A DNA stretch of 64,000 nt from Deltaproteobacteria bacterium (GCA_002691205.1 NZHD01000051.1:2901-66900); one strand, 5' to 3'; positions 1,742-64,000 are shown, counted from the first letter of the stretch. Program-made: numbers and translations. Notes: generated by a model not told the origin, from the sequence alone.

Positions 1742-1891
1742 TGCGCTCTCAACCTCCACTGTTTTCATGGCTCCGAAGAGCCCGTGCATCTCATGCAGTG
1801 CTCCTGCCCTAGACCCACTTATTGATGACCAAAACTTCAAATTCTGACCGAACTGATCTCGCCCAAGCTTAGCCCAAAACCTTTTTTACTC

Positions 1892-4072: not shown

Positions 4073-4078
4073 CCCTCG

Positions 4079-5533: not shown

Positions 5534-5805
5534 GACCCCTTCTCCTCAGCCTGATCATTCGACTTTGGCAAAAAATTCAATTCAGCGTGGTCATCAACTT
5601 CCGTCCACAACCAAGCCCAAGAATTAAGACAAGCCGCCACCGCATAGCAGCCGATCGCCACGGCTACCCAGTCCGGCAAACCTAAGAAAAGCTGAAATTC
5701 ACCGCCCTGTCGGTACCAAGGCACCGATGCCACAAAAAGAAAACCAATCATTCCAAGCAGAATGCGTCGTCCGGTTTTCCGACTCTTCATTCTCATCTGT
5801 GTCAT
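5530..5805 (-). CDS. Small two-TM membrane protein, DUF3311-like SSF accessory subunit
   Basis: 91 aa with two hydrophobic helices and a PWYRQG motif. Stop overlaps the SSF start (5530-5533). This arrangement is common for DUF3311 proteins. Confidence 0.5.
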   Translation of the reverse strand: MTQMRMKSRKTGRRILLGMIGFLFVASVPWYRQGGEFQLFLGLPDWVAVAIGCYAVAACLNSWAWLWTEVDDHAELNFLPKSNDQAEEKGS

Positions 5806-5886
5806 CTCCTAAACCTCAAACCTCTTATCGACCACGACGGAAGCCATTTAACCTTTGCGGTGTAGCATTCCGGTCTCAAAGCAAGC

Positions 5887-6600
5887 TCACCCTACGGCCT
5901 CAATGCAGCGAATGTCATTATGGCGAACATTATTTACATGCGTACTCACCTGTAATGATTCCAGAAGGCCAACCGGCGCAGGGGCGAGCAATCTTGCCAA
6001 GCCCTCTCCCTCCTCAAGTTCAGGGTCAAGCCACGTACGCCATTCCTTTGGCTCAATCAAAACAGGCATTCGGTGATGGACCAGCCGGACCGTCTCATTG
6101 GCAGCCGTCGTCAGCAAAGCGCAGGATTCAACGACCTCCCCTGTCCGAGAATCAACCCAACTTTCCCAAATTCCAGCCACAGCCATCATCTCAGCCTGTG
6201 CGGAGCGAAAGTAATACGGTTGTGATGGACGCCGACGGTTCGAATTGGCTTCCGGTTCATCCTCTGAAAAACGCTTCCACTCGTAAAACCCATCTAGAGG
6301 GATGAGACACCGACGTTTCTTGAATGCCTCTTTAAAAGACGGTTTAACCGAAGCCGTCTCTGATCGCGCATTGATCAGCAAGCGAAAACCTTCCCGCGAC
6401 TTAACCCAAGACGGAATAAGGCCCCAGTGCAAAGGGGCATACCGGCGTACGCCTTCAGATTCCAAACGAATCGCGGCCACAGGCTGACTCGGCGCAATGT
6501 TGTAACGATTCCGGACCTCAGATTCTTCAAAATCAGCCGGCACATCGAAAACCTCTGCAACCTCGGCCACAGACCTTGTCAAAACCATGCGACCACACAC
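5887..6600 (-). CDS. yedK: SOS response-associated peptidase (SRAP/YedK family), abasic-site DNA-protein crosslink protein
   Basis: N-terminal MCGR (catalytic Cys2), then RYNIAPSQ, HWGLIPSW, INARSET and DGFYEW motifs, all hallmarks of SRAP. Confidence 0.85.
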   Translation of the reverse strand: MCGRMVLTRSVAEVAEVFDVPADFEESEVRNRYNIAPSQPVAAIRLESEGVRRYAPLHWGLIPSWVKSREGFRLLINARSETASVKPSFKEAFKKRRCLIPLDGFYEWKRFSEDEPEANSNRRRPSQPYYFRSAQAEMMAVAGIWESWVDSRTGEVVESCALLTTAANETVRLVHHRMPVLIEPKEWRTWLDPELEEGEGLARLLAPAPVGLLESLQVSTHVNNVRHNDIRCIEAVG

Positions 6601-6792
6601 CTTGAACTCCGCTGCTACTATGTTGAATGAGGCCCCTCAAACGCGCCGCAACAACATCGACCCTCTGCTTAGAGAACATCTGAGCCGACCACACATTTTC
6701 AGGAGACTCGCTGCCTTTTGGACTCATCAAACAATAGCGCGCCCGATCAAGCTTCATCGACGCATGGACATGCTTTAGAAGAAGCCGAGGAA

Positions 6793-7794
6793 ATGGAATT
6801 GCCCTCACTTTTGGTCCGAAGTGCGGCCGGCGGCATCCTCATGGGGCTTGCAAACCTTGTCCCGGGTATTAGCGGGGGCACAATGCTTCTTGCGGCCGGG
6901 GTCTACCCCACATTTATCGCCTCGATCGCGAAAGTGACCACGCTCAAAATCGAGGTTCGCTCCCTTCTCACCTTGGGGACCATCGCCGTCTGCGCACTCC
7001 TTGCAATCTTGCTGCTCGCGGGCACAATGCGAGACCTCGTGATCCACCAAAGATGGATCATGTACAGCCTTTTCATTGGACTCACACTCGGGGGACTTCC
7101 GCTCGTCTGGCGACTCGCCCGCCCCGCCCAACCGGCCCTGCTGGTGGGTGCAGGACTCTCCTTTCTCGGCATGGTCTGGATGAGTTTCGGAGCCATCAGC
7201 CCCGGCAGCGATGAAGCCCAATTTGGATTACTCCTCCTTTCTGGACTCGCTGGCGCCTCCGCCATGATTCTGCCCGGGATCAGCGGCGGATATCTCCTCC
7301 TTCTGCTCGGTCAGTACGAGCCCATCCTGGGCGGTATCGATCACTTGAAGCAAGGCATCCTCGGCGGGGAAGGTTCCCCAGCAATGAATGCCGAACTGAT
7401 CATGGCCTCCATGACCGTCATCATCCCCGTAGGAATTGGTGTACTCATTGGCATCGTCGGAGTCAGCAATCTCCTCCGATGGCTTCTGGATCGTTTTGAA
7501 AAGCTCACTCTCGGCCTGCTGCTCGGACTTTTGCTCGGGTCCGTAGTTGGCCTGTATCCTTTCCAAGCCCCCAGTCCACCTGAGCCTGGATTCATCCACA
7601 AAGGGTCCATCATCACCACAGCAGACCAACTCGCGACCATCGAACCGAAGGACTGGCCCTTAACCCGATTTAGCCCCTCTGGTCGCCAAGCGGCCGGCTC
7701 AGTGGCGCTCATCCTGTTGGGTCTCGGGTGTACCCTGGCAGTGGACCGAGTCGGAAGACAGAAACCCACGGCAGTGGCTCAAGGGGATTCCTAA
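6793..7794 (+). CDS. DUF368 family membrane protein (family implicated in undecaprenyl-phosphate translocation, PopT-like)
   Basis: Duplicated PG(I/V)SGG motifs (LVPGISGGTMLL and ILPGISGGYLLLLLGQYE) and a polytopic profile. The longest ORF starts at TTG 6718. I prefer ATG 6793 (MELPSLLVRS...) because the hydrophobic core begins there. Confidence 0.7.
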   Translation: MELPSLLVRSAAGGILMGLANLVPGISGGTMLLAAGVYPTFIASIAKVTTLKIEVRSLLTLGTIAVCALLAILLLAGTMRDLVIHQRWIMYSLFIGLTLGGLPLVWRLARPAQPALLVGAGLSFLGMVWMSFGAISPGSDEAQFGLLLLSGLAGASAMILPGISGGYLLLLLGQYEPILGGIDHLKQGILGGEGSPAMNAELIMASMTVIIPVGIGVLIGIVGVSNLLRWLLDRFEKLTLGLLLGLLLGSVVGLYPFQAPSPPEPGFIHKGSIITTADQLATIEPKDWPLTRFSPSGRQAAGSVALILLGLGCTLAVDRVGRQKPTAVAQGDS

Positions 7795-43655: not shown

Positions 43656-45128
43656 GTGACACAGAATCTGGCCAGCCACCTGCTTTACGAAGTTAACAGA
43701 TCTCAACAAACGGATACCGTCGTGGCCCCTTGGCTTGAAGATGGGGCAGACCTTCTGCCGGAAAACCTGTCCGAAGTGGAACACCATCCACAAGAAGGCG
43801 ACATTTTTCACGGACGGTTTAAGTACCGAATTTTGTCCCGTCTGGGAAAGGGCGGCTTCGGATCGGTCTATCTGGCCGAGTGCCTCGATGCATCCCCCCT
43901 TGGAAGAAGAACGAAACTGGATGTCCCTCCCCCTCAAGTGGCCATCAAGGTCTTGGGACCCACTCGAAACGAAAGAGCGAAAAGTTTTCTCAAACGCGAA
44001 CTCGCTGCGCTGCTCGCGATTCAAGCGCCTCAAATCCCGATTCTCTACGACTGGTCGCTCGAAAGCGAGTCGGCTTTTTCAGTCGTCGAATACTTCCCCA
44101 GTGGCAGCCTGGCCGATGCTTGGCCGTTAATTGGACGCTTCGACGAGCAACAAACTTGGCGCTTAGTCTCCGACCTTTTATCCGCTCTGTCCGCAGCCCA
44201 CCGCGCGTCTATCTTGCATCTTGATGTCAAACCCTCAAATGTTCTTCTGGATGGAGACGGAGGTTTTGTTCTCACTGACTTTGGTGTCTCTCACGCCTCA
44301 CGCATGTCCCGTGGTCTTTTAACTCAAGGCCGAATTGCGGTGGGTCTCGGGACGCACGGCTATCGCGCCCCCGAACAGGACAACTGCGAAATTCAAAGCT
44401 TCGACTTGCGAACGGACCTCTGGGGCGTCGGCGCCACGGCCTGGGGGCTCTATACCGGCATCGACCTGACCAAGCGACGTGAGGCCCTTCGTAAAGCACG
44501 AGATGGCAATGTGTACGGACTGCAGCGGCTTTCGGATGTGCGGATTAATTGTCCCCCACCCCTTGAAGAAGTGATCATGGGACTCCTTCACATTGACCCT
44601 TCCCAGAGGCCGGGCGGCGCCAGCGAGGTGCTCGGACAAATCCGAACTGTGGCCCGTGGATTTGGACTCGATTCTCATACGGTGGCCTCGGCGCGGAGGG
44701 AAAGCATCGCTCCGGGAGAGATTCAGAACTTGATTGATTCGCTCGTCGATCCGCTTTGGGCCTCGATTTGTCGTACACCCGGATTCGAGCGCTACTTCGT
44801 CCGATTTGAGGAAGGCGAGACACTTTCCTCGGCGGGCCCCAGTGCACACCAGACCTTCTTGCTCCTCAAGGGTGCTGTTTCGATTGAACGAGAGGGCGAA
44901 CAACGTGACATTGAAAGACGAGAAGGGACATTAATGGGGGCCGTATCGGCCCTGACTGGCGCGCCACGAAGGGTTCAAATGAGAGCGGTTGAAGGTCCCG
45001 TATGGGTTTGTATTTTCAACGAAGCTGAACTTGAGCAACTCGTGACATGTAACTCCTCTGTCGCAGTCCGCATGATTCGAAGCATGGCCCAAAGACTCAT
45101 AGAAAGTCCTGACCGACACGGGGTCTAA
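43656..45128 (+). CDS. Ser/Thr protein kinase fused to a C-terminal cyclic-nucleotide-binding domain
   Basis: GKGGFGSVY, VAIKVL, HLDVKPSNVLL (non-RD), DFG and GYRAPE. The C-terminal ~120 aa reads FLLLKGAVSIERE...RREGTLMGAVSALTGAPRRVQMRAVE, which is cNMP-binding-like. AAGGAG lies 6 nt before the GTG start. Confidence 0.85.
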   Translation: MTQNLASHLLYEVNRSQQTDTVVAPWLEDGADLLPENLSEVEHHPQEGDIFHGRFKYRILSRLGKGGFGSVYLAECLDASPLGRRTKLDVPPPQVAIKVLGPTRNERAKSFLKRELAALLAIQAPQIPILYDWSLESESAFSVVEYFPSGSLADAWPLIGRFDEQQTWRLVSDLLSALSAAHRASILHLDVKPSNVLLDGDGGFVLTDFGVSHASRMSRGLLTQGRIAVGLGTHGYRAPEQDNCEIQSFDLRTDLWGVGATAWGLYTGIDLTKRREALRKARDGNVYGLQRLSDVRINCPPPLEEVIMGLLHIDPSQRPGGASEVLGQIRTVARGFGLDSHTVASARRESIAPGEIQNLIDSLVDPLWASICRTPGFERYFVRFEEGETLSSAGPSAHQTFLLLKGAVSIEREGEQRDIERREGTLMGAVSALTGAPRRVQMRAVEGPVWVCIFNEAELEQLVTCNSSVAVRMIRSMAQRLIESPDRHGV

Positions 45129-51180: not shown

Positions 51181-52884
51181 CTAGGGCCAACGGGCGAACA
51201 CTCGAAACGAAAGACCATGATCTTGAATCCCGAGGTCGCCAACCGGTGCAAAATCAAGCAGTTGCGCGCCATAGCTGAACTCGGCTCTGAACCACGGAGT
51301 GGGAGACCAGATGGCGTTGACACCTACGCTCGCCAGATTGGTATCTCCTCCGCGTCCCGACCGGCCGTGGCTCCAAGAGCGCCCAAAATCGGCAAACGGC
51401 CCCGCTCGGAGAACACTTCGCCCGGAAGGCTCCAGGCGCAAAGGAAGAGACAGTTCAAAACCCAGCGCATATCCGTTATCGCGCACAACGGCATTCTCAC
51501 GGTAACCACGCACACTGTAACGGCCCCCGATCGCATACCGCTCAAAAGGCAAAAGAGGATCCAACGCCAGCTGAACACTGCCTCTAAACCCCACTTCTAT
51601 TCCACTCTCTGCATGTCTCCATCGCCACTCGGCTTGCCCAAGCCAAGCCGCAAATTCTGCGGTGTCCGTCTCTCCACTCGTCGCCCCCAAGATATCTAAA
51701 CCCACACTCCATGTGGAACGCAAAGCTAAGGCCTGATTCGGGCGCTGGGTGGTCCACTCTTGATAAAATCGCAGAACACTGTCGCGGACCTCACCCTCCG
51801 CATTCGCTGCATCCGAAAAAGCAAACGGAAAACCGCCCACAGTGGAGCGACTCTGCCTCCACTCTCCACGGACTCCCACGACGAGAGACGACCCATTCGC
51901 CGACCAAAGCCGTTGGGTCAGGTCCACGGCTCCCATCCAATACGTACTATCGACATCAAAGCCCGAAAGACTTCCATCGACAATCGCCGCATCCGTGTAA
52001 CGAAAGTCCACAGCCAGCTCCGTTCCCCAATTGGAAACAGGCACGTCATAGTGAACCAAAATGTCTCGCAATCCCTCGGAGAGACCCAAAATGGCCCCCA
52101 GCCTATCTCCCTGGCCTATGGGATTCAGCAGCCCCACCGAGAGGTGGCCGGCCATCTCTCCAATCAAAGGGTTTAATTCATTTCCGAAATCGAGAGCCCC
52201 AGTAAAGCGACGACTCTCCACGACCTCAACCTCAAGAATCGCCTCACCTGCCTCCATTCCTGGAACGAGACGAGCCCGTAACGTTCGAATCCCCGGCTCC
52301 GCCTCAAGCGACTTCAGTCGTCGCTCAAGGGTAAAAGCATTCAGAGGTTCGCCCTCAAGACCCTCAAGGCGAGACTCTAAATACGTCGCGCGATAGTGGC
52401 CTTCGCCGCGCACAACCACACGGCCGAGTCGGCCTTCGATCACTTCAAGCCGGAGGGCTCCGGCCGTGACGTCCTGATCCGGCCAACGGACTTGTGTATT
52501 CACGTAGCCCGCTTTGATGTAGAGCCCCGCTAGGCTCGATCGCAATGTCTCAATTTGCTCGCCATCAAGAACGCGCCCCATAAATCCCTGGGTCAGTCTC
52601 GCAATCACCGCTGGGTCAAGCACCGTATTGCCGACAACATAAATTTCATCGACGCGCACACGCGCTCCGCCCGACATCGTCGTCGAACGCTCCGCCGGAA
52701 TCGGTGGCAAACGAATGGGCGCAGGGCCCATCAACGCCTCACCCACAACCGGGATCGGGCGGCGGCCCGGAAAGTCGGGCACCGACGGAACCTCCTGGGC
52801 CAAAGAAGCCGAGGCCTGTAAAAAAAACCACGCCATGGCGACCCAAAGGCCTGCTCTCCCCAACGAGAACCCTGGCCTCACCAA
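51181..52884 (-). CDS. ShlB/FhaC/HecB-type two-partner-secretion outer-membrane transporter (TpsB)
   Basis: Signal peptide (...FFLQASASLA|QE). POTRA_2-like segments (VRVDEIYVVGNTVL...GYVNTQVRWPDQDVTAGALRLEVIEGRLGRVVV). Beta-barrel ending in an aromatic residue (FRVFARWP). TTG/GTG start directly abuts the tpsA stop. Confidence 0.85.
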   Translation of the reverse strand: MVRPGFSLGRAGLWVAMAWFFLQASASLAQEVPSVPDFPGRRPIPVVGEALMGPAPIRLPPIPAERSTTMSGGARVRVDEIYVVGNTVLDPAVIARLTQGFMGRVLDGEQIETLRSSLAGLYIKAGYVNTQVRWPDQDVTAGALRLEVIEGRLGRVVVRGEGHYRATYLESRLEGLEGEPLNAFTLERRLKSLEAEPGIRTLRARLVPGMEAGEAILEVEVVESRRFTGALDFGNELNPLIGEMAGHLSVGLLNPIGQGDRLGAILGLSEGLRDILVHYDVPVSNWGTELAVDFRYTDAAIVDGSLSGFDVDSTYWMGAVDLTQRLWSANGSSLVVGVRGEWRQSRSTVGGFPFAFSDAANAEGEVRDSVLRFYQEWTTQRPNQALALRSTWSVGLDILGATSGETDTAEFAAWLGQAEWRWRHAESGIEVGFRGSVQLALDPLLPFERYAIGGRYSVRGYRENAVVRDNGYALGFELSLPLRLEPSGRSVLRAGPFADFGRSWSHGRSGRGGDTNLASVGVNAIWSPTPWFRAEFSYGAQLLDFAPVGDLGIQDHGLSFRVFARWP

Positions 52885-55347
52885 TCAGTCCCTATCTGCC
52901 AAGCGCCAACGTCCACCGCAGCCTGGATCGAATCCATCCAGTTGCTGACGCACACTGCCCCCTTGAGGCGAAAGCGTCTGAGAGGTCGCGCCTTCTGAGG
53001 AGGCGCCTCTCGGACCTGAAGGGAGATAGCCATCGAGAGCGGGCGGCCTCGATGGCCGACCTTCTATGACGAACGAACTGTCGCCCACATCTCTTCGCGC
53101 TGCACACTGAGCCCGCAGCAATGCTGAGACATCCAAGTACGAAACGGGAAGAGGCTCCACCTGCCCGGCCACATCCACCTGAGGCGCGTTGATGGTCACC
53201 ACACCGTCTACACCCCCATCAAATGAAGAGGGGATAATCGCTGAATCCGCTGACTCAAGCAGGTAGTCGGCCGAGAGATCGATGTTTCCACCGCTGCCCT
53301 CTTTAGCCGAACTCACCAATTCGCTTTCGTTCAGAACGAGATACTGCGGCCCTCCCTCCTGACCCACTCGGATATTCCCCCCGCTTCCGTCCTCTTTGCT
53401 GACCTTCGTCTCCACCTTACTCCGAATGAACTCGATGCGAGCGCCCGCCGCGATCGTGATTTCGCCGCCCTCAGAGGCCGCCAATGCCTCTGCGTTCAGC
53501 TCGGCATCGCGCATAAAAATATTGTGATCGGCCATCACGTTGAGTTCACCGGCAGACGCCTCACCGAGGCTACTCACGGTCACAAAGCCCCCGTCTACGA
53601 TCGATATGTTCTCAGCCTGTAAGAAAACAGAACCCGAAGCTCCATCATCCGCCCGAGCGGCGATTTCGCTTCCCTGACCCGAGAGAGAACCACTCACAAG
53701 AAGGTCACCCTCTAGCCTCACATCCACACTGCCCGTATCCGCAGGCGTTTGAAGCGTACTGGCGGAAATCGTTCCGCCTTGGGTGACCTCAAGACTCCCC
53801 GCGCGAACCGAAATATCGCCGGCCTTTGCGCCTGGAAAAGTCAAGGCGGACCCCTCCTGATAGAGAGCCCGAGCTAAGAGTCCAGACCGCGCGTAACTCC
53901 AGGCCCCGTCTTCCCAACTGCGCAAGACGCCCGAGATCACGACCGACCCCGCCATGTCCACGCGAATATCGCCGCCTACTAAATCCCGGTACACCGGCGT
54001 GCGGATCTGTCCTCCATTGACGAGACGGAGATTTCCTCCCTCCACCCAGATGGCACCGGCCGGCCCTCCCCCAGGCCGGGGCAGTGAAAACAACACACTG
54101 CCCTCGTCAAGGCTCACTTCCTCGGACCCCACGACATGCAGGCCCACCGGACTTCCAGACGACCCTTCGTTGAGACCTTCGGTTTGGAGCCCGATAACGT
54201 TCACCGAAGACCCTCCTGTGAGTGAAACCGTCTCGCCTCGAATCTCCACGGGGGCCGCCGAGGACTCAATCAGAGAGACCCCCTCATTTCCAGCGGCAAG
54301 CAAAACCTCAGGGGCCGAGATGCGAATCGCAGGCCCCGAGACAAGCCCCTCATCGACGAACCTTTTTAAGGTCGACGCTTCCAAAGTCATTGAATGACCG
54401 GCTTTCAAATCCATAGCGGGCCCTTGGGCATTCCCTCCGGAATAAATCTCCGTGCCCCCCACTAGACGAAGTACGCCTCCCTCAAGAAGGACTCGACCCC
54501 CTCCTGCCCCGCCTCCCATTCGAGAGTCCAAACGTGAGCCTTCAAGCTCAATCAAAGCCTCCTGACCTACCTGCGCCAAAGGAAGATTTGATTCGCCGCC
54601 CACCGAAAGAGGAACTTCCACCGCGCTGTGCCCGGTGGCCACGAGATGAATCACGGATCCAGGCACCTCCACTTTTCGGGAGATCAAACCCACTTTTCCC
54701 GCCACGATTCTAAACGCGTTAAAGCTCCCCACACCGACAAAGCCCGGGATGGAAGGATCTGCAGTCAGGGTCACACCGGGCAACGGCGCATCGCCCTCGG
54801 TGCCTTCAAAAACCAACGAAACCGGCTCTCCCGAGCAGCACCCGCTCGCAGACCACGGGCTTCCGTCCACCGGGAATGCGCCGTCCGAAAAACGCACCGC
54901 ATTGGCGGTGCTCAAGGTCAGCCCTCCGGACAAATTATAGAAGGCACCGCTTGGTCCCACCGTGATACCGTGAGGGCTTAAGAAATAAAGATCTGCCCCA
55001 ACGTGTTCCGAAAACACCGAGCCATTGATCAGGGCTGGACTTTCACCCGTCAATCGAACAAAGACATGATCGAACAAGCCCGGCCCTGCAAAGCCCACAT
55101 TCTCAGAAGGGTCCACCGAAAACTCGGAAAAGCTGTGAAAAAGATTCCCACCCGCTTGCTCACCGCGCGTCGAATCAACCTCGTATGTGTAAGCCTCGCT
55201 CCCCGGCGCAACACCGCTCCCCCCAGCCCCCACCGTGCCATCAAAAACGACCTGGGTCCACGCCGCCTCGACAAAGAAGAGCAACAGGAGCAGAGCGCTC
55301 CAAATCGGCCGAGCGATTCCTCGATTAAAAAAAATGAGTCGAATCAT
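52885..55347 (-). CDS. TpsA-like exoprotein with filamentous-haemagglutinin N-terminal (TPS) secretion domain and beta-helical body
   Basis: Signal peptide, then the TPS-domain hallmark GGNLFHSFSEFSV (codons at 55129-55146) and ALINGSV...DLYFLSPHGITVGP, a divergent NPNGI box. The rest is Gly/Ser/Val-rich repeats. ATG 55347 shares its A with the upstream TGA (TGATG). The track start is TTG 55350. Confidence 0.8.
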   Translation of the reverse strand: MIRLIFFNRGIARPIWSALLLLLFFVEAAWTQVVFDGTVGAGGSGVAPGSEAYTYEVDSTRGEQAGGNLFHSFSEFSVDPSENVGFAGPGLFDHVFVRLTGESPALINGSVFSEHVGADLYFLSPHGITVGPSGAFYNLSGGLTLSTANAVRFSDGAFPVDGSPWSASGCCSGEPVSLVFEGTEGDAPLPGVTLTADPSIPGFVGVGSFNAFRIVAGKVGLISRKVEVPGSVIHLVATGHSAVEVPLSVGGESNLPLAQVGQEALIELEGSRLDSRMGGGAGGGRVLLEGGVLRLVGGTEIYSGGNAQGPAMDLKAGHSMTLEASTLKRFVDEGLVSGPAIRISAPEVLLAAGNEGVSLIESSAAPVEIRGETVSLTGGSSVNVIGLQTEGLNEGSSGSPVGLHVVGSEEVSLDEGSVLFSLPRPGGGPAGAIWVEGGNLRLVNGGQIRTPVYRDLVGGDIRVDMAGSVVISGVLRSWEDGAWSYARSGLLARALYQEGSALTFPGAKAGDISVRAGSLEVTQGGTISASTLQTPADTGSVDVRLEGDLLVSGSLSGQGSEIAARADDGASGSVFLQAENISIVDGGFVTVSSLGEASAGELNVMADHNIFMRDAELNAEALAASEGGEITIAAGARIEFIRSKVETKVSKEDGSGGNIRVGQEGGPQYLVLNESELVSSAKEGSGGNIDLSADYLLESADSAIIPSSFDGGVDGVVTINAPQVDVAGQVEPLPVSYLDVSALLRAQCAARRDVGDSSFVIEGRPSRPPALDGYLPSGPRGASSEGATSQTLSPQGGSVRQQLDGFDPGCGGRWRLADRD

Positions 55348-58300
55348 CAACTCCCCGCAGCGGCCTCACACTGGTCGGACTCAAACTCAGCCGGCGGCGA
55401 AGACTGCCCCAGGGTCCGCTTGTGAATCACAGCGTCACGAATCGTACATTCTGCGTCATTGTCCACGCTACACCGCTCCCCCACTTCAGCGTCCACTGGG
55501 TCCACCAACTGAGAAAGTAGCGCAGCTAGATCCACCGATTCACTGCCCGAAATCCATCCGTCGCCGGTCGCCTCGCCACACTGACAAGCATCGCCGATGC
55601 CCTCAGGAAGGTTCGAATCGATCCACTCCATCCCGCCCGAATCAATCTGTGAGGTATTGGCCGTGTAAATACAGTTGTCGTCTTCATTCCGTCGCTCGTC
55701 CTCATCGACATCTTCCGACATTGTGCTTGCAACGCCATTCGACGACACGCCGCAGGGCTCATCACACGCAAACAGGACACCCGGGTCGTAGTACTGAGCA
55801 TCCGACAGAAGAGGCTGACTTGCACACCACGAAACCGGAGCGGCGAATTCAGAGGCATCCGGCAAAAGCAAGCTCGGCAAACGATCCTCCACGCTGCAGC
55901 CGGGCGAATACTCGGGCTCACCCGGTTCGGGACAAGGGCTCAGATCCACACTCGGCGATATATTCAAACGCCCCACGCACTGAAGGTCCTCTAGTCCAGG
56001 CGTCAAGGCCCCTAAACTCGGCTCGGTCATGCTCAGATTCCCCTCGACCACGAGAAAGAGATAACCGTCGGTGGCACTCGATGGGTCCGTATCCTCCCAA
56101 GCAAATGATGCGCCGTCTACATCCCCGGAAGAGTAGTCAAGGCCGTCCGCATTTACCGAGGAGTAAACGGCATCCTCAGAGGAAGCGTCGTACAGCGAAG
56201 ACGCCCCATCGTCACACCACATCCGTCCGTCCGCATCGAGAGTCCCGTCGCAATCTTGCCATGAAATCGTGTGATCCCACTGACCGTCGCTATCGTCATC
56301 AACCAGGGGCGGTTCCGCGGCCACCGTCAAACGATGCAGTAAATACGACGGCGAAGTGAAACAAAGCTCAAAAACACTCACATCATCAATCGCCTGCCCC
56401 ACTAACGGGAGGAGTTGGGCTTCCACGCAGGTCGAACTCGACGACGCCCCCGAAGTTCTCATCATTCGAGAGGAACGGCACGGTGTGGCGGTCCGAGAGG
56501 ACATCACACGAAAACGGCTGATTGCATCCGTGTCGGAAACCACAGGAAGAATCCCGCCCGCACGGCCCATTGAAACATTCACAGCCGGGCGCGAGGCGGG
56601 TCGAGGTATGGGCGGAGCCCATACGAGATCGCCCATATGCTCGACCACACCTGCCGTGCACAAGTCCTCGGTCGCTTTCAACAAAACATAGAGGGTGTCT
56701 GGGCGCAGACCGCCGAAGCCCACCTGACTATTCGCTCCCCAAGCGTCGGTCACGAAGACCCCGGACTCGCTCCGATCCAGAACTGAACCTAGATATGGAC
56801 TGCCCGTCGGAACCTGACTACATCCACTGCATCCCATACACAGACTCTCAGGCGCCTCACACACTGAACCCACGGGTCCGCCAAACGTGAAATCATCCGC
56901 AGAAGCACCCAGTGGCGTGAGCGCCACCAACATTTCGTCAATGTCGGCCACAGCGCCGCACTCAACCTCGAGCCTCCAACGATCTTCCCCTAGGCCGTCT
57001 GGGTCTTCAATCAGGTGAACCACAGTTTCTTCGCAGGCGTCTCCCACGCCATCTTGATCCGCATCCGCCTGAGCTGCGTTGGAAACTCGCAGGCAACTAT
57101 CGCAGCGGTCCCCCACCGAATCCCCATCAAAGTCCAGCTGATCTGAATTCGGGACGGTGGGACAGTTATCCACAAAATCGGAGTGACCGTCCTGGTCTGA
57201 GTCCTGCAAATGCAGTTGCCAGACCACACCCCCATCACTGGGCGTGCCCACCGGAACCGCATTGGCTCCCACCCACAGTTCCGGCTCGCCGTCCCCGCTC
57301 ACGTCGGCCACCGCGACAGATCGGCCAAACAGAGTCGAGGCCTCGATCACGCCCCCAGGCACATCGAGCTTGTCAATAAAAACGCCCCCCTCGATGGTGC
57401 TGCCCCCCATCAAAGGCATCATTTGCAAAACGACAACGCCCCCTTCTTGCTGTGTTCCGCTGCCATAAGCCCCGGCCAAAAGGTCTGTGTCGCCATCCGC
57501 ATCGATATCCCCGAGCGGCGTCAGCGAATTTCCAAGACCTGAAACAGAAACGTTAGCGGCCGGAAAGCGAGCCACACCCGAATCGATGGTGTCCTTCACG
57601 ATCCCCCCCGACTGCGAGGTCAAGGAAACGATTTGAATGGCTCCTCTCTGATTGGGCCCTCGACCGGGTGAACCGACGGCCAGTTCGACGCCCGTTCCTC
57701 CATAAAGATTCCCCAAAAAGGCTAAGGATGCTCCAAATTGATCTCCGTCAGTGAGAGAAGCTGAGCCCAAAGATCCATTGCCCAGAGTCGTAGCGGACTT
57801 GAGCGTACCGTCTGATTTCAAGTTCAGAATCTCAATCGCGCCGCAACCCAACACACAGCCGATAGGCGCATCTGGATGGCCAACCACGACATCCGAAACG
57901 CCGTCGCCGTCTAAGTCTCCAATCCCTGTGACCGATTTAGGCGCGTAGGCCATCTGAAACCGAACCGTACTCCTCACTTCAGGCAGAGGCGAGAGCGCCG
58001 TACGAGCGCTTAAGAAAAGAATAAAAACGTAGCGTCGCCCTGGAGCCACAACGGCCAACTCCGTGACTCCGTTGCCGTCTAAATCTCCGATCGCGGCCAG
58101 ACCGGCTCCAAATCCATCGCCGGCCAGAATAATACTTTTGTATTCAGGCGTATCGGAACCAAACTGAATGACGTCATCCACCGTCCCGTCACGCCGCATG
58201 AGCAAAAGCAGGACCGCACCCGCGTTATTGTTATAGCTCGGTGCGCCCAGGGCGAGGTCGGACACTCCGTCTCCATTGAGGTCACCCACGGCGGCCACCG

Positions 58301-59138
58301 ACTCGCCCAGCTTCCAATCGAGCGAAAGGTTGAGCCCATCGGGCGTAATGGGGTTCACCGTCTCAATTTCATCGGCGCGAATAGCGTTTGCCGAACTCAA
58401 AAGGAGGCTCAATCCCAAAATTAAACCGGCTGCACCTCGGACTCGACGACGTGCAAGAAACCCTAAGCCGGTGAGCCCTGAAAGCAGCAGCAAACCAAAA
58501 CCGGGTTCGGGCACTAAAATCTGTCCCGCGTCCACTGAGACTTCATCCATACTGACCTGGACCGCTGAACTCGTCGCCATCACCATCAACTCGGGCGGAT
58601 CATGCTCATCGCCCACCGAGGTCCACGCCAAATCCAAAGTCCCTACACACTGAGAAGAACCCGCACTGAGAGGACTCGTATCGTACAACCAACTCAAACC
58701 CAGTTCGCTAACAGGATGGGCCGCGAGTTCAGCATCAGTTTTTGAGGCCACTAAAACGATCGATCCACACTCCACAAAACCCTCAATCAGAACCGGATTT
58801 TCCGTGTTCGCCGGGACTTCAAGATCAAGCTGCCAGGCACAAAGTTCATCGCCGGAACCCGTCGCTGCGTCGCAGTCGGCCGCGGGGCTTGTCGAAGCCG
58901 TCGCCCCCACCTCCAAGCAGAGAGTAAAACTCTCCGTGGGCGCCGAAGGAATGGAAAAAACCACACCTGAACTCTCCACGGGAGCCCAGACCGTCGCCGC
59001 GTCTTCAATCGCGCAACAACCCGAAACCGATCCCTCGCAGAGATAAAACTCGGGGGTTCCTGCGAAGCCGATCCCCTCTCCCAGCCACAGAATCAGTGTG
59101 GCCCATCCCCAAATGCGTCGTATTCTAGCTCCCGCCAT
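55347..59138 (-). CDS. Giant multidomain surface protein: signal peptide, Cys-rich N-domain, internal PEP-CTERM signal, second signal-peptide-like helix, six FG-GAP (integrin-alpha-like) repeats, thrombospondin type-3 repeats, Cys/Asp-rich C-region
   Basis: FG-GAP calcium motifs at a ~60-aa period: [80 protein letters not shown] and [16 protein letters not shown] (nt 57261-58286). TSP3 reads [35 protein letters not shown] (nt 57030-57206), with a second copy near the C-terminus ([16 protein letters not shown]...GIGDACQCG). Confidence 0.75.
58383..58451 (-). other. Signal-peptide-like segment immediately after the PEP-CTERM signal (aa 230-252)
   Basis: RRRVRG (n-region), [13 protein letters not shown] (h-region), SANA|IRADE (AxA-type cleavage site). 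Confidence 0.55.
58434..58514 (-). other. Internal PEP-CTERM sorting signal (aa 209-235 of the 1263-aa ORF)
   Basis: [27 protein letters not shown] is the complete tripartite PEP-CTERM pattern (PEP motif, TM helix, Arg cluster), but it is followed by 1028 more in-frame codons rather than a stop. Confidence 0.7.
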
Positions 59139-59265
59139 ATTCTCATCCGCTTATCATCATCAGCAGCTGCGGTCCTGAGCCTCTATTCTACTCGCTTTAG
59201 CCCTCAGGATGTCGCAAACCTTGTTTTTGTGGTGCCCCTGAAGCTGAAGTCGGTGACGATTAAAA

Positions 59266-59294
59266 AATCGGATCAGAAAAATATGAATCCGATT
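59266..59294 (-). terminator. Weak terminator-like hairpin between the CHAT gene and the giant gene
   Basis: Inverted repeat AATCGGAT (59266-59273) / ATCCGATT (59287-59294) with a 13-nt loop, followed on the minus strand by T5-6 (plus-strand A-run 59262-59267). The stem is AT-rich, so only moderate termination is expected. Confidence 0.35.
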
Positions 59295-59317: not shown

Positions 59318-61651
59318 TCAAAGCCAACTTCCGATCATCTGAAAAGGGGCCCAAAAAGCTGGGTGCCGATAGCGAAAATCCTGCCTGAGTTCTCTTTGTG
59401 CCTGGGCCAGCGCCTCGGCCCGAGAAACCCCTGCGGTCAACAGATGCCGATAAAAAGCGGTCACCAGCCGAGCCGTCGCCGGATCATCCACACTCCAGAG
59501 GCTTCCAAGAGCGCTTCGGGCCCCCGATTGAACAGCGATGCCCGACAAGCCAAGCGCAGCCCGTGGGTTGCCCTCGGCCGTTTCGCACGCGCTCAGGGTT
59601 AGCAACTCAAGGGGCTGCTCACGAAAACGAAAAGTTCCGATGTCCTCCGCCAAACCCTTCATTGAGAGTCGGCCGTCCGCTGTCACAAGAAAAGCACTCT
59701 CCTCAAGTCCAGAAAAAACAGCATGAGTCGCCAGATGAACCACGCTGTAGGGCTCCTCGGCCAGGCGTTCCCTTAAACGGGATCGACGAAAGGCAGCATT
59801 CATTAAGACATCGCCCCCGATCACCGAATGAACTTCTTCGATCTCAAGAGCCACATTTGGAAGAGGCGCAAAGCCGTCAGTGGCTTCGCTTAAACCAGCC
59901 AGCAAGGCACGAGGCCCTTCTTTTTGAAACGGACGTGGGTCTGTTAACTGAAGCCCAGGTGTCAGCGCCACCGCATAGTGATCCACCAAAAATGATTGAC
60001 CGTCGTGAAGCGCTGCCATGGGAATGGTCAACAAGGCGCCCGAAGGAACGAAGACCAGCGTTTTAATCTCGCGCTCTTGCAGCGCCCCCTTCAGGGGCTC
60101 AATCAACCAAGTGTAGAGCCGTTGAGCGTGAGGCAAATAGCGGCGGGTCCCCGCCCGCTCAAGGGTTTGCCGAAACAAAGCCACTTCCGTCTCGACCAAG
60201 GCCCTCGAAACCGCTTTTTCATAGGCCACAATTTCCCCAGTCGGCCAGCTAACCAAGACCACCAAGCGGTCGGCCAATGAGACGGGGTAGAGAATGGCCG
60301 CCTCAGGAGAAACCGCTTCGATACTGGCTAAGCGGTCCTGCAATGCGTCCACGCATTCGTCTTGAAAATAGTCCCTCAATTCGGCGGCTTTGAATCGCTC
60401 CAAGCCATCGCGTGCGCGACGAAGCAGACTTTGACGCACGGCCGAATCTGAAGTCGCCTGAGCCTGATCCAAGAGCAGCCCAACGAAGGCTTCATAGATC
60501 GGCTGAACCTCCTGCTCAAAGGAGGCCCCCTGCCCGTCCCCGCCCCACGGCGTTTGAGTCCGCAGGGGCGCCAAGGCTTCAATGGCCCTTGAGTACGCCG
60601 AGATCGCCTCGGGCCTCCGGCCGAGTTCATTCAAAAGTTCGCCGCGCTGTGACTCAAGTCGATACAATCGAACCGGGTCCGCGATCCGTCTCGCCCGTCG
60701 AAGTGCTCGATTCGTCAATTCCAGGGCTTCACCCCGGCGTCCTTCCATTTGATACAGGGCCCCAAGTTCCCTCAAGGCCACGGTCGCCACGGACTCCGCC
60801 CCCACTTCATCGGCGGTCTCAAGCCCGGCATACAACCATTGTGAGGCCAACACGCGCGATTCCGCTGACGGCACCCCCAGGCTTCTTTCCTGATGACCAA
60901 GATTGACCCAGAGTTCAGCCCGCACATACGAAGGCGGTAAAGTCTCCACTCGAAGGGCCGCTTCTTTTAAAAAAGACTGAGCCCGCTCCGGTCCACTCGG
61001 GGCCGAAACACGAGCCGCATTCCCAAGCGCACGCGCCTCAAGAGCCGAGTCTTGAGCGAGTCCCCCTGCCAACGCACTGGCTTCAAAGTGAGCCAAAGCA
61101 TCCTCGGGAAGCCCCTTCAGCGCCGCCAGAACTCCGAGGTCATTTTCTGCTTCCGCCGTCACTCTCACTTGATCGAAAGTACGCGCTCCGTGGATCGCCC
61201 GGGTGAGCCAGAGAGTCGCTTGCGCCCTCTCGCCTAGGGCTAAAGCCGAAGCGCCTAATGAAGCTTCGATGGCCGGCCGCTTGTTGGATAAATCTCTCTC
61301 ATCTGAAATGGTGAGTGCACGCTCCAGATGCGTCATCGAGGAAGGGACCTCGCCCACCGCTCGCTCACAGCGCGCCAAATCCAGCAGACTCTCCACTTCA
61401 AGGCTCGCCTGGCCCCGGGCCTTCTCCACCGCTTGGGCATAAAGGGCCCGCGCTGACAAAAACTGGCCCTGAGATTCCGCCTGGGCCGCTTTCGCTCTGA
61501 GGCCAGAGACCTCAGACTGACTGCCCACGGTTTGCCCACGAACAAGGCTTGGGGCCATCGCTAACAAAGAGAGGATCAAGCTCAAGAAAAAGAATTCCCG
61601 AAGATAAGATCTCTTCACAAACATAAAGCCCAGACATCGCGATGGGTGCAT
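59318..61651 (-). CDS. Exported TPR-repeat CHAT-domain (caspase-like) protease
   Basis: Sec-type signal (MFVKRSYLREFFFLSLILSLLAMAPSLVRG|Q), about 400 aa of TPR-like helices, then a CHAT domain with a His/Cys dyad in VVHLATHAVFSG (His codon 59723-59725) and LLTLSACETAEG (Cys codon 59585-59587). Confidence 0.8.
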   Translation of the reverse strand: MHPSRCLGFMFVKRSYLREFFFLSLILSLLAMAPSLVRGQTVGSQSEVSGLRAKAAQAESQGQFLSARALYAQAVEKARGQASLEVESLLDLARCERAVGEVPSSMTHLERALTISDERDLSNKRPAIEASLGASALALGERAQATLWLTRAIHGARTFDQVRVTAEAENDLGVLAALKGLPEDALAHFEASALAGGLAQDSALEARALGNAARVSAPSGPERAQSFLKEAALRVETLPPSYVRAELWVNLGHQERSLGVPSAESRVLASQWLYAGLETADEVGAESVATVALRELGALYQMEGRRGEALELTNRALRRARRIADPVRLYRLESQRGELLNELGRRPEAISAYSRAIEALAPLRTQTPWGGDGQGASFEQEVQPIYEAFVGLLLDQAQATSDSAVRQSLLRRARDGLERFKAAELRDYFQDECVDALQDRLASIEAVSPEAAILYPVSLADRLVVLVSWPTGEIVAYEKAVSRALVETEVALFRQTLERAGTRRYLPHAQRLYTWLIEPLKGALQEREIKTLVFVPSGALLTIPMAALHDGQSFLVDHYAVALTPGLQLTDPRPFQKEGPRALLAGLSEATDGFAPLPNVALEIEEVHSVIGGDVLMNAAFRRSRLRERLAEEPYSVVHLATHAVFSGLEESAFLVTADGRLSMKGLAEDIGTFRFREQPLELLTLSACETAEGNPRAALGLSGIAVQSGARSALGSLWSVDDPATARLVTAFYRHLLTAGVSRAEALAQAQRELRQDFRYRHPAFWAPFQMIGSWL

Positions 61652-61670
61652 TAAGCCATTCCGCCTCTGT

Positions 61671-63113
61671 TCACTCTATGCTCGAATCGATTGGCACTCG
61701 GATCTCGACCTGTTCCAATAAATCGCTCCGCGCCTTTTCAACGCCTTCGACGTCTAGACCTGCTTCGGTCCAGTCTGAAAGCTGCCTGAAGGCATCGTAC
61801 CAATACCCTTGCTCGGCCAGCAGGTGCGCCTGCGCGGCCAGTTCGGCCTCCTCCCACTTCACTTGCTGAGCGGGTGTTCGCTCTTGAAAAACCAGCGCGG
61901 CACTCGCTCTCACATCACGAGAACGACGCGCAGCGTCGACCACGGCCGCCGCCTGCCAGCGATACACAACCCCAGCTTGAAGCTCCACACCGAGATCCTC
62001 AAGCGACACCGCGTGAAGCCCCGCTGCCTGAGGTCCGCCTCTCTGAAATTCAACCAGGGGCTCAATCGAAACATCGTCCGCGACCGTGATCTCAATGGGA
62101 AGGGACGTAGGCTCCGAGAGCCAGTAATAAAGCGTGGGGGAAGTCGAACTCGTCCAACCCACATGATCGGGGCCTAAAGCGTACACTTCGAGTGACGAAG
62201 TCCCTCCCGCCGAACGCACTTTCCCATAGGTTCGAACCGACGGCCCGCCCAAAAGGGGAATCTGATCCACTCCATATCGAATTTCCCCAGAAGGCCAATT
62301 CGAAGCCAGGAGCGCGATATCGGGGCCCGCCACGAGGGGCGAAATGTCCGAACTCGGCGACTCAGGCGTGCTCGCGACCTCCACCGTTTTCGGGGGCAAG
62401 ACTTCGGCTTCGCGCGGGGACGGGGCCCTCATCTGATCCACCTCGGGTTGGCTCTCGTTCAGGGCCAAAGCACCTGGGGAGACACCCTTCGCTGCCTCGT
62501 CAGAAGCCAATTCCTGTAGATCAACCGGATCAAGGGGAACCAACGGACTCTCGGGGGCCGGCCTCGTTGAGCTTTCGGCCAGAGTCGGCGCGGGGACCAT
62601 GGGCGCCTCGTCTCTGACCCATAGCCAACCCAGAGGCAAAATCAGAATCGCGAGCGCCGCTGCGGCAAACGTGGGCGAGACCACCCAACCACCGAGGGCC
62701 TCTAGGGCGTTTGAGAAAGCTTTCCTCCACTCCGTCCCAAGAGACACTGAAGCGTCTGGCGTGGACGCCTTCGATGCTACTCCGATCGCGGCAAAATCAA
62801 AACGTTCCAGGACCGTCAACTCCGTCGTACAGGGTGCACACGCTTCCAGATGAGTTTCAAGACCTCGGCGCACGTCAAAATCGAGCGTGGCCGGTGCCTG
62901 CGCGTACGCGAGCAAGACCTCTTCCGAAGGATGATCTCCGGCCGAACTCGGCGCCGCATGTCCCAGCGCCTGCTCAAGTTGCATGCCTCGGCGAACTTCC
63001 CGGGTGCAATCCGAGCAGCTCGGATAATGAGCTCGAAAAGCCGCGTAGCGCGAATCCTCCCGCTCAAGCAGGAAATCCACTACATCAATTTCATCGAAGT
63101 CTTCACAAGGCAT
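61671..63113 (-). CDS. Membrane anti-sigma factor with tandem zinc-binding (HxxxCxxC) N-domains and a periplasmic DUF928-like C-domain
   Basis: Canonical N-terminus MPCEDFDEIDVVDFLLE (ATG 63113; the track ORF starts at TTG 63206). Motifs HYPSCSDC (63006-63029) and HLEACAPC (62832-62852). One TM (62616-62687). Pro/Ser-rich linker. C-domain (61692-62204) reads PTLYYWLSEP..IEITVADD...GVVYRWQAAAVVD...LLAEQGYWYDAFRQLSDW, matching my memory of the DUF928 pattern. Confidence 0.7.
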   Translation of the reverse strand: MPCEDFDEIDVVDFLLEREDSRYAAFRAHYPSCSDCTREVRRGMQLEQALGHAAPSSAGDHPSEEVLLAYAQAPATLDFDVRRGLETHLEACAPCTTELTVLERFDFAAIGVASKASTPDASVSLGTEWRKAFSNALEALGGWVVSPTFAAAALAILILPLGWLWVRDEAPMVPAPTLAESSTRPAPESPLVPLDPVDLQELASDEAAKGVSPGALALNESQPEVDQMRAPSPREAEVLPPKTVEVASTPESPSSDISPLVAGPDIALLASNWPSGEIRYGVDQIPLLGGPSVRTYGKVRSAGGTSSLEVYALGPDHVGWTSSTSPTLYYWLSEPTSLPIEITVADDVSIEPLVEFQRGGPQAAGLHAVSLEDLGVELQAGVVYRWQAAAVVDAARRSRDVRASAALVFQERTPAQQVKWEEAELAAQAHLLAEQGYWYDAFRQLSDWTEAGLDVEGVEKARSDLLEQVEIRVPIDSSIE

Positions 63114-63202
63114 GGCCTGTGTCCTTTGTGCCGTTCGGTCCGCAACGCATAAGTTTTTTATCCCCCTCGCTGTGGACAGTCGTTCCCACATCGCGAATCG
63201 GA

Positions 63203-63778
63203 TCAACCTGAATCAAGAAAATCAACAAGATCCCCTCTTAATTGTGTGAGGCCATCCCTGAGGTACCGTTTAAGAGACCCCAGAGGAATCCCGGTATCCT
63301 CAGCCACTTGATCATAGGTCCGTCCCTGGACGTGAACCCCCAAAACCACAAGACGCTGTTTTTCGGGAAGTCGCTCAAGGGCTTGAGCGAGATCTCGGCT
63401 CATTTCGCCCTCTCCCGGGTCGTCCGCGAGCTGAGCCTCATCTGCCCCGACCACATCCTCCCAAGGAAGAGTCTCATTTTCTTTGGTGCGAGTCTGGGCC
63501 TTCAACCGATCGATAAACTTGAAACGCGCCGTGGTTCTCAGATACCCCACCACCGCCCGCCGGTCCCGAATTTTTCCGTCACGTAACGCCAAGGCCGCCG
63601 CCACAATGACCTCTTGTACCAAGTCATCCCAGTCGCTGCGAAAATCGTAGGCATTCCAACGGCCCAAAAACCCGTTGACCAAACGAGTCAGCCTAGCCAG
63701 AGCAAGCGCGTCTCCTGCCAGCAAGGCTTCGAGTGTCGCCCCCCAGTCTGTCTGACCGCCTGCGGCATTTCCCGTCAT
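63203..63778 (-). CDS. ECF (group IV) sigma-70 family RNA polymerase sigma factor
   Basis: Region 2 (DWDDLVQEVIVAAALAL, RAVVGYLRTTARFKFID) and region 4 HTH (LPEKQRLVVLGVHVQGRTYDQVAEDTGIPLGSLKRYLRDG). I prefer ATG 63778 or ATG 63865. The track start 63955 would overlap the divergent gene. Confidence 0.8.
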   Translation of the reverse strand: MTGNAAGGQTDWGATLEALLAGDALALARLTRLVNGFLGRWNAYDFRSDWDDLVQEVIVAAALALRDGKIRDRRAVVGYLRTTARFKFIDRLKAQTRTKENETLPWEDVVGADEAQLADDPGEGEMSRDLAQALERLPEKQRLVVLGVHVQGRTYDQVAEDTGIPLGSLKRYLRDGLTQLRGDLVDFLDSG

Positions 63779-63910
63779 TCTCACAAGTATGCTCAACTCT
63801 TGAGGCCGTCGCACCCGGCGAACAAACGCACCCAGACCTCGCGCCAAGCCCCGATCTCGAGTCATCCAAAAGATTAAGCATCTAAGCCTTAAACCATTAC
63901 CCTTTGACCT

Positions 63911-64000
63911 ATGGAACTCTGGATCCCTCTCAGCATCGCAGCCGCTTTTCTTCAAAACATCCGCTCAGCGCTGCAAAAGTATCTAAAAGATGCTCTCTCT
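63911..64000 (+). CDS. Partial N-terminus of a membrane protein, possibly EamA/DMT-type permease (continues beyond the window)
   Basis: My translation from ATG 63911 is MELWIPLSIAAAFLQNIRSALQKYLKDALS, which is hydrophobic then amphipathic and resembles DMT-family N-termini. Only 30 codons are visible. Confidence 0.3.
   Translation, partial: MELWIPLSIAAAFLQNIRSALQKYLKDALS

Follow-up and report, generated by a model that had tools for sequence, protein, structure and literature searches.

A predicted sigma-output variant of a conserved CHAT–DUF928–TpsAB cassette in an uncultured Myxococcota bacterium, and its possible role in envelope signalling

In the DdvS–DdvA system of Myxococcus xanthus, the anti-sigma factor DdvA carries a fused periplasmic TPR-CHAT region that blocks RseP and has been proposed to act as the protein's own site-1 protease ahead of RseP (PMC11506125). 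A TPR-CHAT protease also acts upstream of a sigma factor in the type III-E craspase, a system of the clustered regularly interspaced short palindromic repeats (CRISPR) type in which Cas7-11–Csx29 cleaves Csx30 and thereby frees CASP-sigma (PMC10028731). In the RseA–DegS–RseP pathway, a site-1 protease removes the periplasmic domain of the anti-sigma factor before site-2 cleavage (PMC10028731, PMC11506125). The locus described here encodes a sigma factor of the extracytoplasmic function (ECF) type, an anti-sigma factor fused to a DUF928 domain and a separate TPR-CHAT protein that is predicted to be exported. It lies in a 64,000-nucleotide stretch of DNA (NZHD01000051.1:2901-66900, assembly GCA_002691205.1, recorded as a Deltaproteobacteria bacterium; hereafter the window), and the host is an uncultured Myxococcota bacterium. 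DdvS–DdvA is the closest published system.

Open reading frames (ORFs) together with Pfam and NCBIfam matches place a run of six genes, all read from the minus strand, in the final 13 kb of the window. In minus-strand order these encode the ECF sigma factor (63203-63778; Pfam Sigma70_r2, r4_2 and r4), the 480-residue anti-sigma::DUF928 fusion (61671-63113; DUF928, zinc motifs and one transmembrane helix), a predicted exported TPR-CHAT cysteine protease of 777 residues (59318-61651; CHAT and TPR_12), a 1263-residue FG-GAP/thrombospondin-type-3 (TSP3) repeat protein (55347-59138; FG-GAP and TSP_3), an 821-residue TpsA-type exoprotein (52885-55350; TPS, the two-partner secretion domain) and a TpsB outer-membrane transporter with POTRA_2 and a ShlB barrel (51181-52884; ShlB and POTRA_2). 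The original prediction, made from the window alone, had described a triad in which an ECF sigma gene is followed by a single-pass anti-sigma gene and, 19 nt beyond its stop codon, by the ATG of the CHAT gene; both the order and the spacing are borne out. The cluster is larger than this triad, since the FG-GAP/TSP3, TpsA and TpsB genes also belong to it.

Comparative genomics suggests that the triad, a real gene set, is one version of something wider. The order sigma, anti-sigma::DUF928, CHAT, FG-GAP, TpsA (and TpsB) is found again in other Myxococcota, where the proteins are 35-42% identical, and the same gene set recurs despite rearranged order in loci L017, L018 and L020. When a single genome was scanned for each species, with annotation by custom hidden Markov models (HMMs), 73 DUF928 loci came to light in a wide range of phyla; the locus counts are minimum values, because short contigs are common among them. 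DUF928 is fused to an anti-sigma factor in 13 of these loci and unfused in 60. A sigma gene accompanies 11/13 fused and 0/60 unfused loci, a CHASE2–nucleotide-cyclase membrane protein accompanies 0/13 fused and 36/60 unfused loci, and the two never occur together (0/73). CHAT is found with both forms (11/13 fused, 39/60 unfused), as are TpsA (9/13 and 25/60) and TpsB (5/13 and 38/60), and the median gap between DUF928 and CHAT is 194 bp. The two fused loci without a sigma match lie where their contigs end, and of the two without CHAT, L016 is a fragment of 2 kb and the other is L023. Sigma, CHAT and TpsA are all present in each of the six fused loci that have 7 kb or more of sequence on both sides. 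Co-occurrence of CHAT with a sigma/anti-sigma pair, which the original prediction had named as a check, thus extends to every sigma-type locus with enough context except L023.

Taken together, the triad of the window appears to be the sigma-output variant of a broader CHAT–DUF928–TpsAB cassette. This cassette would have two outputs: a sigma factor with an anti-sigma::DUF928 fusion, or a CHASE2-cyclase with a free secreted DUF928 protein. The cassette and the CHASE2–DUF928 pairing were both absent from the literature searched, whose coverage was incomplete; in that literature DUF928 receives a passing mention in a single paper, and the main text of the ECF reclassification paper is silent on CHAT, DUF928 and TPS.

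CHASE2–cyclase orthologs adjoin a free secreted DUF928 gene in L021, L027, L030, L042, L060, L061, L068, L075 and about 28 other loci, with full-length matches (E-values of about 1e-100 to 1e-170) and the usual order CHAT, CHASE2-cyclase, DUF928. This arrangement suggests that the CHASE2 sensor domain may have a protein input. In L022 and L033, cNMP-binding or GAF-HD proteins are also present.

The anti-sigma gene starts at the Met at 63113 and not at the end of its ORF at 63206 (ORF 61671-63206). A 480-residue database protein (P0001) matches the window protein at 100%, and all 23 homologs begin at the position of this Met. The sigma and anti-sigma genes therefore do not overlap, and the 89-nt spacer between them contains a promoter-like site. 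The same architecture is kept in the 23 aligned homologs and, in an exhaustive profile search, in over 100 representatives of clusters drawn at the 50% identity level; that search also returned many short proteins consisting of DUF928 only.

The cytoplasmic region of the anti-sigma factor (62829-63107, minus strand) contains two tandem zinc-type motifs among its alignment invariants, C3/H29/C33/C36 and H61/H88/C92/C95, and gives weak matches to the zf-HC2 and RsrA profiles. An AlphaFold2 (AF2) model predicts two helical bundles here, one for each HxxxCxxC motif, with a predicted local distance difference test score (pLDDT) of 79-94. Hardly any variation is seen in either HxxxCxxC motif across the family; a single such motif is usual in class I anti-sigma factors. 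A hydropathy peak marks a single transmembrane helix at residues 141-167 (62613-62693, minus strand), modelled by AF2 as a helix at 147-167. It is followed by a Pro/Ala/Glu-rich periplasmic linker of about 130 residues (62250-62609, minus strand), which is variable and unconserved in the alignment and is predicted to be disordered (pLDDT <50 over residues 169-305).

At the end of the linker lies a conserved Arg/Gly linear motif, LLGGPSVRTYGKVRS (62211-62255, minus strand), also within predicted disorder. The equivalent motif of the fusions reads P.Y…GG.SVRTGG.VRS, and in free DUF928 proteins a signal peptide precedes Y[KR]PPxRGAPxxRVGGGTRG, so that a linear motif of this kind precedes every DUF928 fold, fused and free alike. 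The combination of conservation and modelled disorder makes LLGGPSVRTYGKVRS a candidate CHAT cleavage site or TPR-docking peptide. The DUF928 fold itself (61701-62201, minus strand) matches Pfam PF06051 with an E-value of 7.9e-17 (62 bits; cut-off 26) and is modelled with pLDDT 83-96 as a beta-sandwich of the immunoglobulin/fibronectin type III (Ig/FN3) kind, then four helices. Foldseek searches with this model returned generic Ig/FN3 matches only and no characterised homolog.

The CHAT protein matches PF12770, a caspase-like family of clan CD, over residues 508-775 with an E-value of 2.5e-63 (214.7 bits; cut-off 24). On the minus strand, its putative signal peptide occupies approximately residues 1-39 (61535-61651), its TPR solenoid residues 43-440 (60332-61525) and its CHAT domain residues 508-775 (59327-60130). 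The AF2 model (pLDDT 90.1) shows a 17-helix TPR solenoid and then a caspase-like domain. The His and Cys codons of the dyad had been correctly named from the sequence: the putative catalytic residues are His643 (59723-59725, in VVHLATHAVF) and Cys689 (59585-59587, in LTLSACETA), both minus strand, in canonical motifs and invariant across 34 homologs. The invariant dyad argues for real proteolysis somewhere.

Sec-dependent export into the compartment that holds DUF928 had also been proposed, and the N-terminus supports it. The sequence MFVKRSYLREFFFLSLILSLLAMAPSLVRG, followed by Q, is signal-peptide-like, with a hydrophobic peak at residues 19-39 and an AF2 pLDDT <50, and a heuristic reading of N-termini finds a signal peptide or a lipobox in nearly all CHAT homologs. 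Lipoprotein-type signals (LAGC, LVGC, LLAC) occur in homologs P0035, P0036, P0037 and P0062, which implies that these orthologs are probably membrane-anchored proteases facing the periplasm.

The likeness to DdvS–DdvA spans most of this architecture: a Myxococcota host, an ECF sigma factor, a zinc-type N-terminal anti-sigma domain and one transmembrane helix (PMC11506125, PMC6061681), as well as a periplasmic linker that is long and flexible and a TPR-CHAT that lies in the periplasm and carries a His/Cys dyad. The window anti-sigma factor shares with DdvA-type proteins the zinc-type domain, the single transmembrane helix and a sigma gene directly upstream; it lacks a covalently fused TPR-CHAT, because its periplasmic domain is DUF928 and CHAT is encoded by a separate gene. 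DdvA, in contrast, has its TPR-CHAT fused, has no DUF928, is missing three active-site helices, forms a dimer and controls a defence-island regulon of CRISPR and cyclic-oligonucleotide-based antiphage signalling (CBASS) genes. The window system differs by its split CHAT, its DUF928 ectodomain, its link to two-partner secretion and a predicted regulon of protease, FG-GAP protein and TPS pair. The proposal that TPR-CHAT plus sigma logic had been used independently here therefore holds in being cas-independent and is less novel than supposed, given the DdvA–DdvS precedent (PMC11506125).

The comparison with the Csx29–Csx30–CASP-sigma switch, of which the locus had been considered a periplasmic counterpart, is more distant. 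The TPR-CHAT fold and its dyad are common to both systems, and in both a protease would relieve the inhibition of an ECF-like sigma factor, although for the window this is inferred. Craspase is cytoplasmic, RNA-guided, bound to Cas7-11 and directed at the soluble inhibitor Csx30, whereas the window encodes an exported protease and a membrane anti-sigma factor. No association with Cas7-11/gRAMP, a CRISPR array, csx30 or csx31 is seen in the window, a cytoplasmic location is contradicted (by heuristics only) and homology to Csx29 at the sequence level is lacking.

In Foldseek searches the top matches of the window model are Csx29 chains (8eey_B, E-value 1.7e-14, TM-score 0.49-0.57, 13% identity; Csx29 range 11-14%), and DdvA is matched at an E-value of about 1e-12, a TM-score of about 0.45 and ~16% identity. 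The TPR-CHAT is in fact about equally near to Csx29, the DdvA TPR-CHAT and separase (identity 11-16%). Searches of all PDB chains with phmmer and a profile matched TPR proteins only and no solved CHAT structure; swamped by TPR proteins, the profile search gave no ranking of Csx29, DdvA and separase. The generic TPR-CHAT fold of the proposed counterpart thus stands, with an identity of 13% and no sequence-level match to Csx29. The modelled structure places the window protease as a generic TPR-CHAT of Csx29's fold class, outside the Csx29 family, and the Csx29 switch appears analogous in logic only.

With RseA, the window anti-sigma factor shares a single-pass architecture and a periplasmic domain that, as proposed here, would have to be removed first. 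The site-1 protease is a PDZ serine protease in the RseA system and a caspase-like Cys protease candidate in the window, and the input is misfolded porins in the former and presumably a dedicated secretion apparatus in the latter. A further parallel is FecA–FecR–FecI, in which an outer-membrane component signals to the periplasmic domain of an anti-sigma factor and the ECF sigma factor induces transport genes. FecA is a TonB-dependent transducer, whereas the window has a TpsB/TpsA pair, with a separate protease and DUF928 interposed. Periplasmic proteases that act on the periplasmic end of surface adhesins, the TpsA-type CdrA and FhaB among them, and are tied to second messengers are known from LapD–LapG acting on LapA/CdrA and from FhaB processing. 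Such control resembles the CHASE2-cyclase version of the cassette; the proteases belong to other families, DUF928 is absent, and the LapD signal runs from inside to outside.

The partner of the CHAT protein is suggested by natural gene fusions. The window TpsA has a TPS domain (PF05860, E-value 1.5e-14; TIGR01901, 1.1e-9), and TpsB matches ShlB (PF03865, 7.8e-20) and POTRA_2 (PF08479, 6.3e-17). Stand-alone TpsA proteins end in '…LDxSxLLxxxCxxRxxxxxSSFVVxGRGGLPxxPDGYLPS…', a conserved C-terminal motif found in the window at 52996-53139 (minus strand) as YLDVSALLRAQCAARRDVGDSSFVIEGRPSRPPALDGYLPS. A complete TpsA is joined to TPR-CHAT in P0058, in a gene of L008 (precomputed Pfam matches) and in a gene of L073 (custom HMMs), and in both fusions examined (L073 and P0058) this motif forms the TpsA/TPR junction. 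The fusions are Rosetta-stone evidence that CHAT probably works with the C-terminal end of TpsA, and they back the coupling of the TPR-CHAT to TpsA that had been guessed earlier.

The FG-GAP/TSP3 protein, encoded between CHAT and TpsA, contains an internal PEP-CTERM-like segment about 210 residues from its start (58362-58514, minus strand; VPEP, a hydrophobic helix and RRR). A second signal-peptide-like hydrophobic stretch follows directly, and this layout is kept in 8 orthologs; it looks as if two exported proteins had been joined, or as if an internal sorting or cleavage signal were present. Its NCBIfam matches are weak and are of the PEP-CTERM and MtsC-like kinds. In L033, a TpsA of more than 2455 residues (2-7366, minus strand) with FG-GAP_2 and MBG repeats adjoins a CHASE2-cyclase and a DUF928 gene. 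The FG-GAP module is therefore fused to TpsA in L033 and is a separate protein in the window.

The sigma factor has both Pfam regions of an ECF sigma factor (Sigma70_r2 and r4_2) and matches the NCBIfam sigma70-ECF model TIGR02937 above its cut-off (E-value 4e-16; 59 bits against 42.9). Its ORF spans 63203-63955, and the gene caller picked a start at 63865; the start at 63778, which gives 191 residues, is preferred as the probable one because the orthologs have 190-191. A sigma-70-like -10 box, CATACT, lies at 63779-63800 (minus strand) and ends ~7-8 nt 5' of this ATG; the orthologs have GATACT, CATAAT or CATCAT at the equivalent place. The position of the box suggests that the sigma mRNA may be leaderless and constitutively transcribed.

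Genomic context also points to a promoter for this sigma factor. The motif TGATCC-N17-CGACT occurs twice as an exact match in the window; each copy is intergenic, lies on the minus strand and is correctly oriented. The first (GATCC-N17-CGACT, 63178-63204) is a predicted ECF-type promoter for the anti-sigma and CHAT genes. An exact site is present at the same junction in 12/12 of the other non-redundant sigma-type loci that include it, and in every sigma-type locus examined the TGA stop codon of the sigma gene (63203-63205 in the window) provides the first three bases of the -35 element TGATCC. The second (59248-59274), with an A/T-rich tract 5' of it, is a predicted promoter for the FG-GAP, tpsA and tpsB genes and has a counterpart at the equivalent place between the genes of 10 orthologous loci. 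Sigma-type loci hold 28 exact motif sites in 299 kb where 0.57 would be expected (~50-fold); in non-sigma loci, 876 kb hold 4, with 1.7 expected. A predicted ECF-type -35/-10 promoter, probably the cognate one, lies beside the operon, and the predicted regulon consists of the anti-sigma–CHAT and FG-GAP–tpsA–tpsB transcription units.

A conserved sigma-70-like -10 box (TAGAAT, 59185-59190, minus strand) may mark a second, housekeeping promoter. The element, 'GTAGAAT' or 'GTATAGAAT', is kept in the window and in L002, L004, L010, L011, L012 and L013, and in these seven loci it lies in the CHAT–FG-GAP spacer ~60-90 nt 3' of the ECF-type site. A generic promoter/terminator scan of 51-64 kb reported zero sigma-70 consensus promoters. 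A short hairpin after the CHAT gene was unflagged by the same scan, and no terminator is claimed.

These observations can be combined into a sigma-controlled envelope signalling module in which CHAT, activated by a surface apparatus, would cut the anti-sigma factor. The sigma factor would be held at the inner membrane by the zinc-type single-pass anti-sigma factor, whose periplasmic end, as sequence and model show, consists of the long disordered linker and then DUF928. The TPR-CHAT protein, probably exported to the periplasm, would attach to the periplasmic C-terminal tail of TpsA, as the natural fusions indicate, while the TpsA beta-helix would be threaded to the surface through TpsB. An altered state of the TpsA/TpsB/FG-GAP apparatus would then activate or free CHAT, which would cut or capture the Arg/Gly motif at the N-terminal edge of DUF928. 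Once the bulky ectodomain was lost, an RseP-type site-2 protease would clip the membrane stub and free the sigma factor, on the model of RseA and DdvA. The released sigma factor would transcribe the predicted TGATCC-N17-CGACT promoters of the anti-sigma–CHAT and FG-GAP–tpsA–tpsB units, giving feedback plus more surface apparatus. The claim of the original prediction that CHAT may be the site-1 protease of this anti-sigma factor is compatible with the evidence, and the whole chain is given a probability of about 0.42.

Several points weigh against this chain. Cleavage of the anti-sigma factor by CHAT is a step that we infer, heuristics alone were used to judge the signal peptide, and no gene for a site-2 protease is present in the cluster. 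The TPS–CHAT fusions could also mean that CHAT acts outside the cell and not in the periplasm. The promoter motif is consistent with one of the ECF type, and its recognition by this sigma factor is deduced from position and enrichment. The motif lies upstream of the sigma gene itself in several orthologous loci, but the longer contig from the window genome (L082) has no copy with ≤1 mismatch upstream of its sigma gene; autoregulation of sigma in this genome was set aside for that reason. Among the well-flanked unfused loci, CHASE2 is present in 19/24 and CHAT in 17/24, so that DUF928 appears slightly more constant with the membrane transducer than with CHAT. L022, L033 and L069 have CHASE2 and DUF928 and no CHAT in the available sequence (≤10 kb on each side). 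L023 (3978-10631), from a Spirochaetales metagenome-assembled genome, encodes sigma, anti-sigma::DUF928 and a second, free DUF928, with the motif 5' of each anti-sigma/DUF928 gene, and has no CHAT within about 4 kb or elsewhere in its contig. The genes 3' of this set are HlyD-like, MacB/FtsX-like and ABC-GAF, a MacAB-like system.

The fusions and the loci lacking CHAT also speak for an alternative role of the protease, in which CHAT would mature or release secreted cargo (TpsA and/or the FG-GAP/TSP3 protein) and DUF928 would be no CHAT substrate but a sensor of something else, such as cargo fragments or the state of the envelope. Known parallels are LapG on CdrA/LapA and SphB1/CtpA on FhaB. 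The Cys-flanked 'SSFVVxGRGGLPxxPDGYLPS' marks both the TpsA C-terminus and the junction of the TpsA–TPR–CHAT fusions, CHAT, TpsA and TpsB co-occur across phyla, and some pairs of DUF928 and a transducer have no CHAT nearby. This role leaves unexplained why DUF928 typically lies ≤ ~200 bp from CHAT and why a single transcription unit, predicted to depend on sigma, holds both the anti-sigma and the CHAT gene, and it is considered unlikely.

The conserved, disordered linear motif beside a folded domain, in fused and free forms alike, would equally suit a securin-like keeper: DUF928 would be a pseudosubstrate or inhibitor of CHAT whose linear motif sits in the protease and is not productively cut, and the anti-sigma factor would be switched by binding or titration of CHAT, as a signal of conformation or occupancy, and not by site-1 cleavage. 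Fold relatives such as separase and DdvA are governed by bound peptides or by an inactive dyad geometry (PMC11506125), and free DUF928 proteins would make suitable stoichiometric partners. However, the invariance of the catalytic dyad favours actual proteolysis, and classical single-pass anti-sigma factors are usually inactivated by proteolysis (PMC11506125), which makes a keeper role quite unlikely.

The position of CHAT as a TpsA passenger in the TPS-domain–CHAT fusions could instead mark it as an extracellular effector or toxin secreted by TPS, with DUF928 as a periplasmic immunity or quality-control factor and a sigma pair that merely regulates expression; toxins are often exported by TPS systems (PMC5422565). 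Against this, CHAT proteins that stand alone bear Sec or lipoprotein signals themselves and lack a TPS domain, the surroundings are housekeeping with no defence or toxin matches, and the alternative CHASE2-cyclase output points to signalling and not immunity, so that an effector role is very unlikely. That the three genes are neighbours by chance or through co-regulation alone, CHAT and the anti-sigma factor having no direct relation, as the sigma-type locus L023 without CHAT nearby might suggest, is scarcely credible given its conservation across phyla and through gene-order rearrangement, the mutual exclusion of the two signalling outputs and the common predicted promoter of the anti-sigma and CHAT genes.

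The remaining genes of the window are housekeeping genes (hisD, a Sir2 homolog, MutS, GlnD and LptD). No CRISPR array or CRISPR-like repeat was found in the window, PADLOC gave zero matches for the cluster proteins, and cas genes are absent, as had been stated at the outset. A defence-system reading was dropped on the basis of the PADLOC result, the lack of a CRISPR array and the housekeeping surroundings. About 6 kb from the cluster (43656-45128, plus strand) lies a gene for a Ser/Thr protein kinase that carries a cyclic-nucleotide-binding domain at its C-terminus; no tie between the two is established.

The envelope signalling module favoured here can be extended to the whole cassette. A TPR-CHAT protease tethered to TpsA/TpsB might cleave the DUF928 Arg/Gly motif in a trans-envelope pathway, with the signal relayed by destruction of the anti-sigma factor in Myxococcota and some Spirochaetota, or by the CHASE2 nucleotide cyclase in Proteobacteria, Nitrospirota, Verrucomicrobiota and others. 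This extension is doubtful as a whole; if it were true, DUF928 would gain a function and the CHASE2 sensor domain its first candidate input. Parts of the scheme are open to experiment, including the catalytic Cys, the candidate cleavage motif, the two predicted promoters and the fusions that point to partners. Even if the cleavage step were wrong, a conserved cassette with two interchangeable outputs would be a useful comparative-genomic finding. If the model is correct, caspase-like CHAT proteases would transduce signals in the periplasm well outside CRISPR and the one example of DdvA, and a surface secretion apparatus would be linked to transcription or to cyclic-nucleotide signalling.

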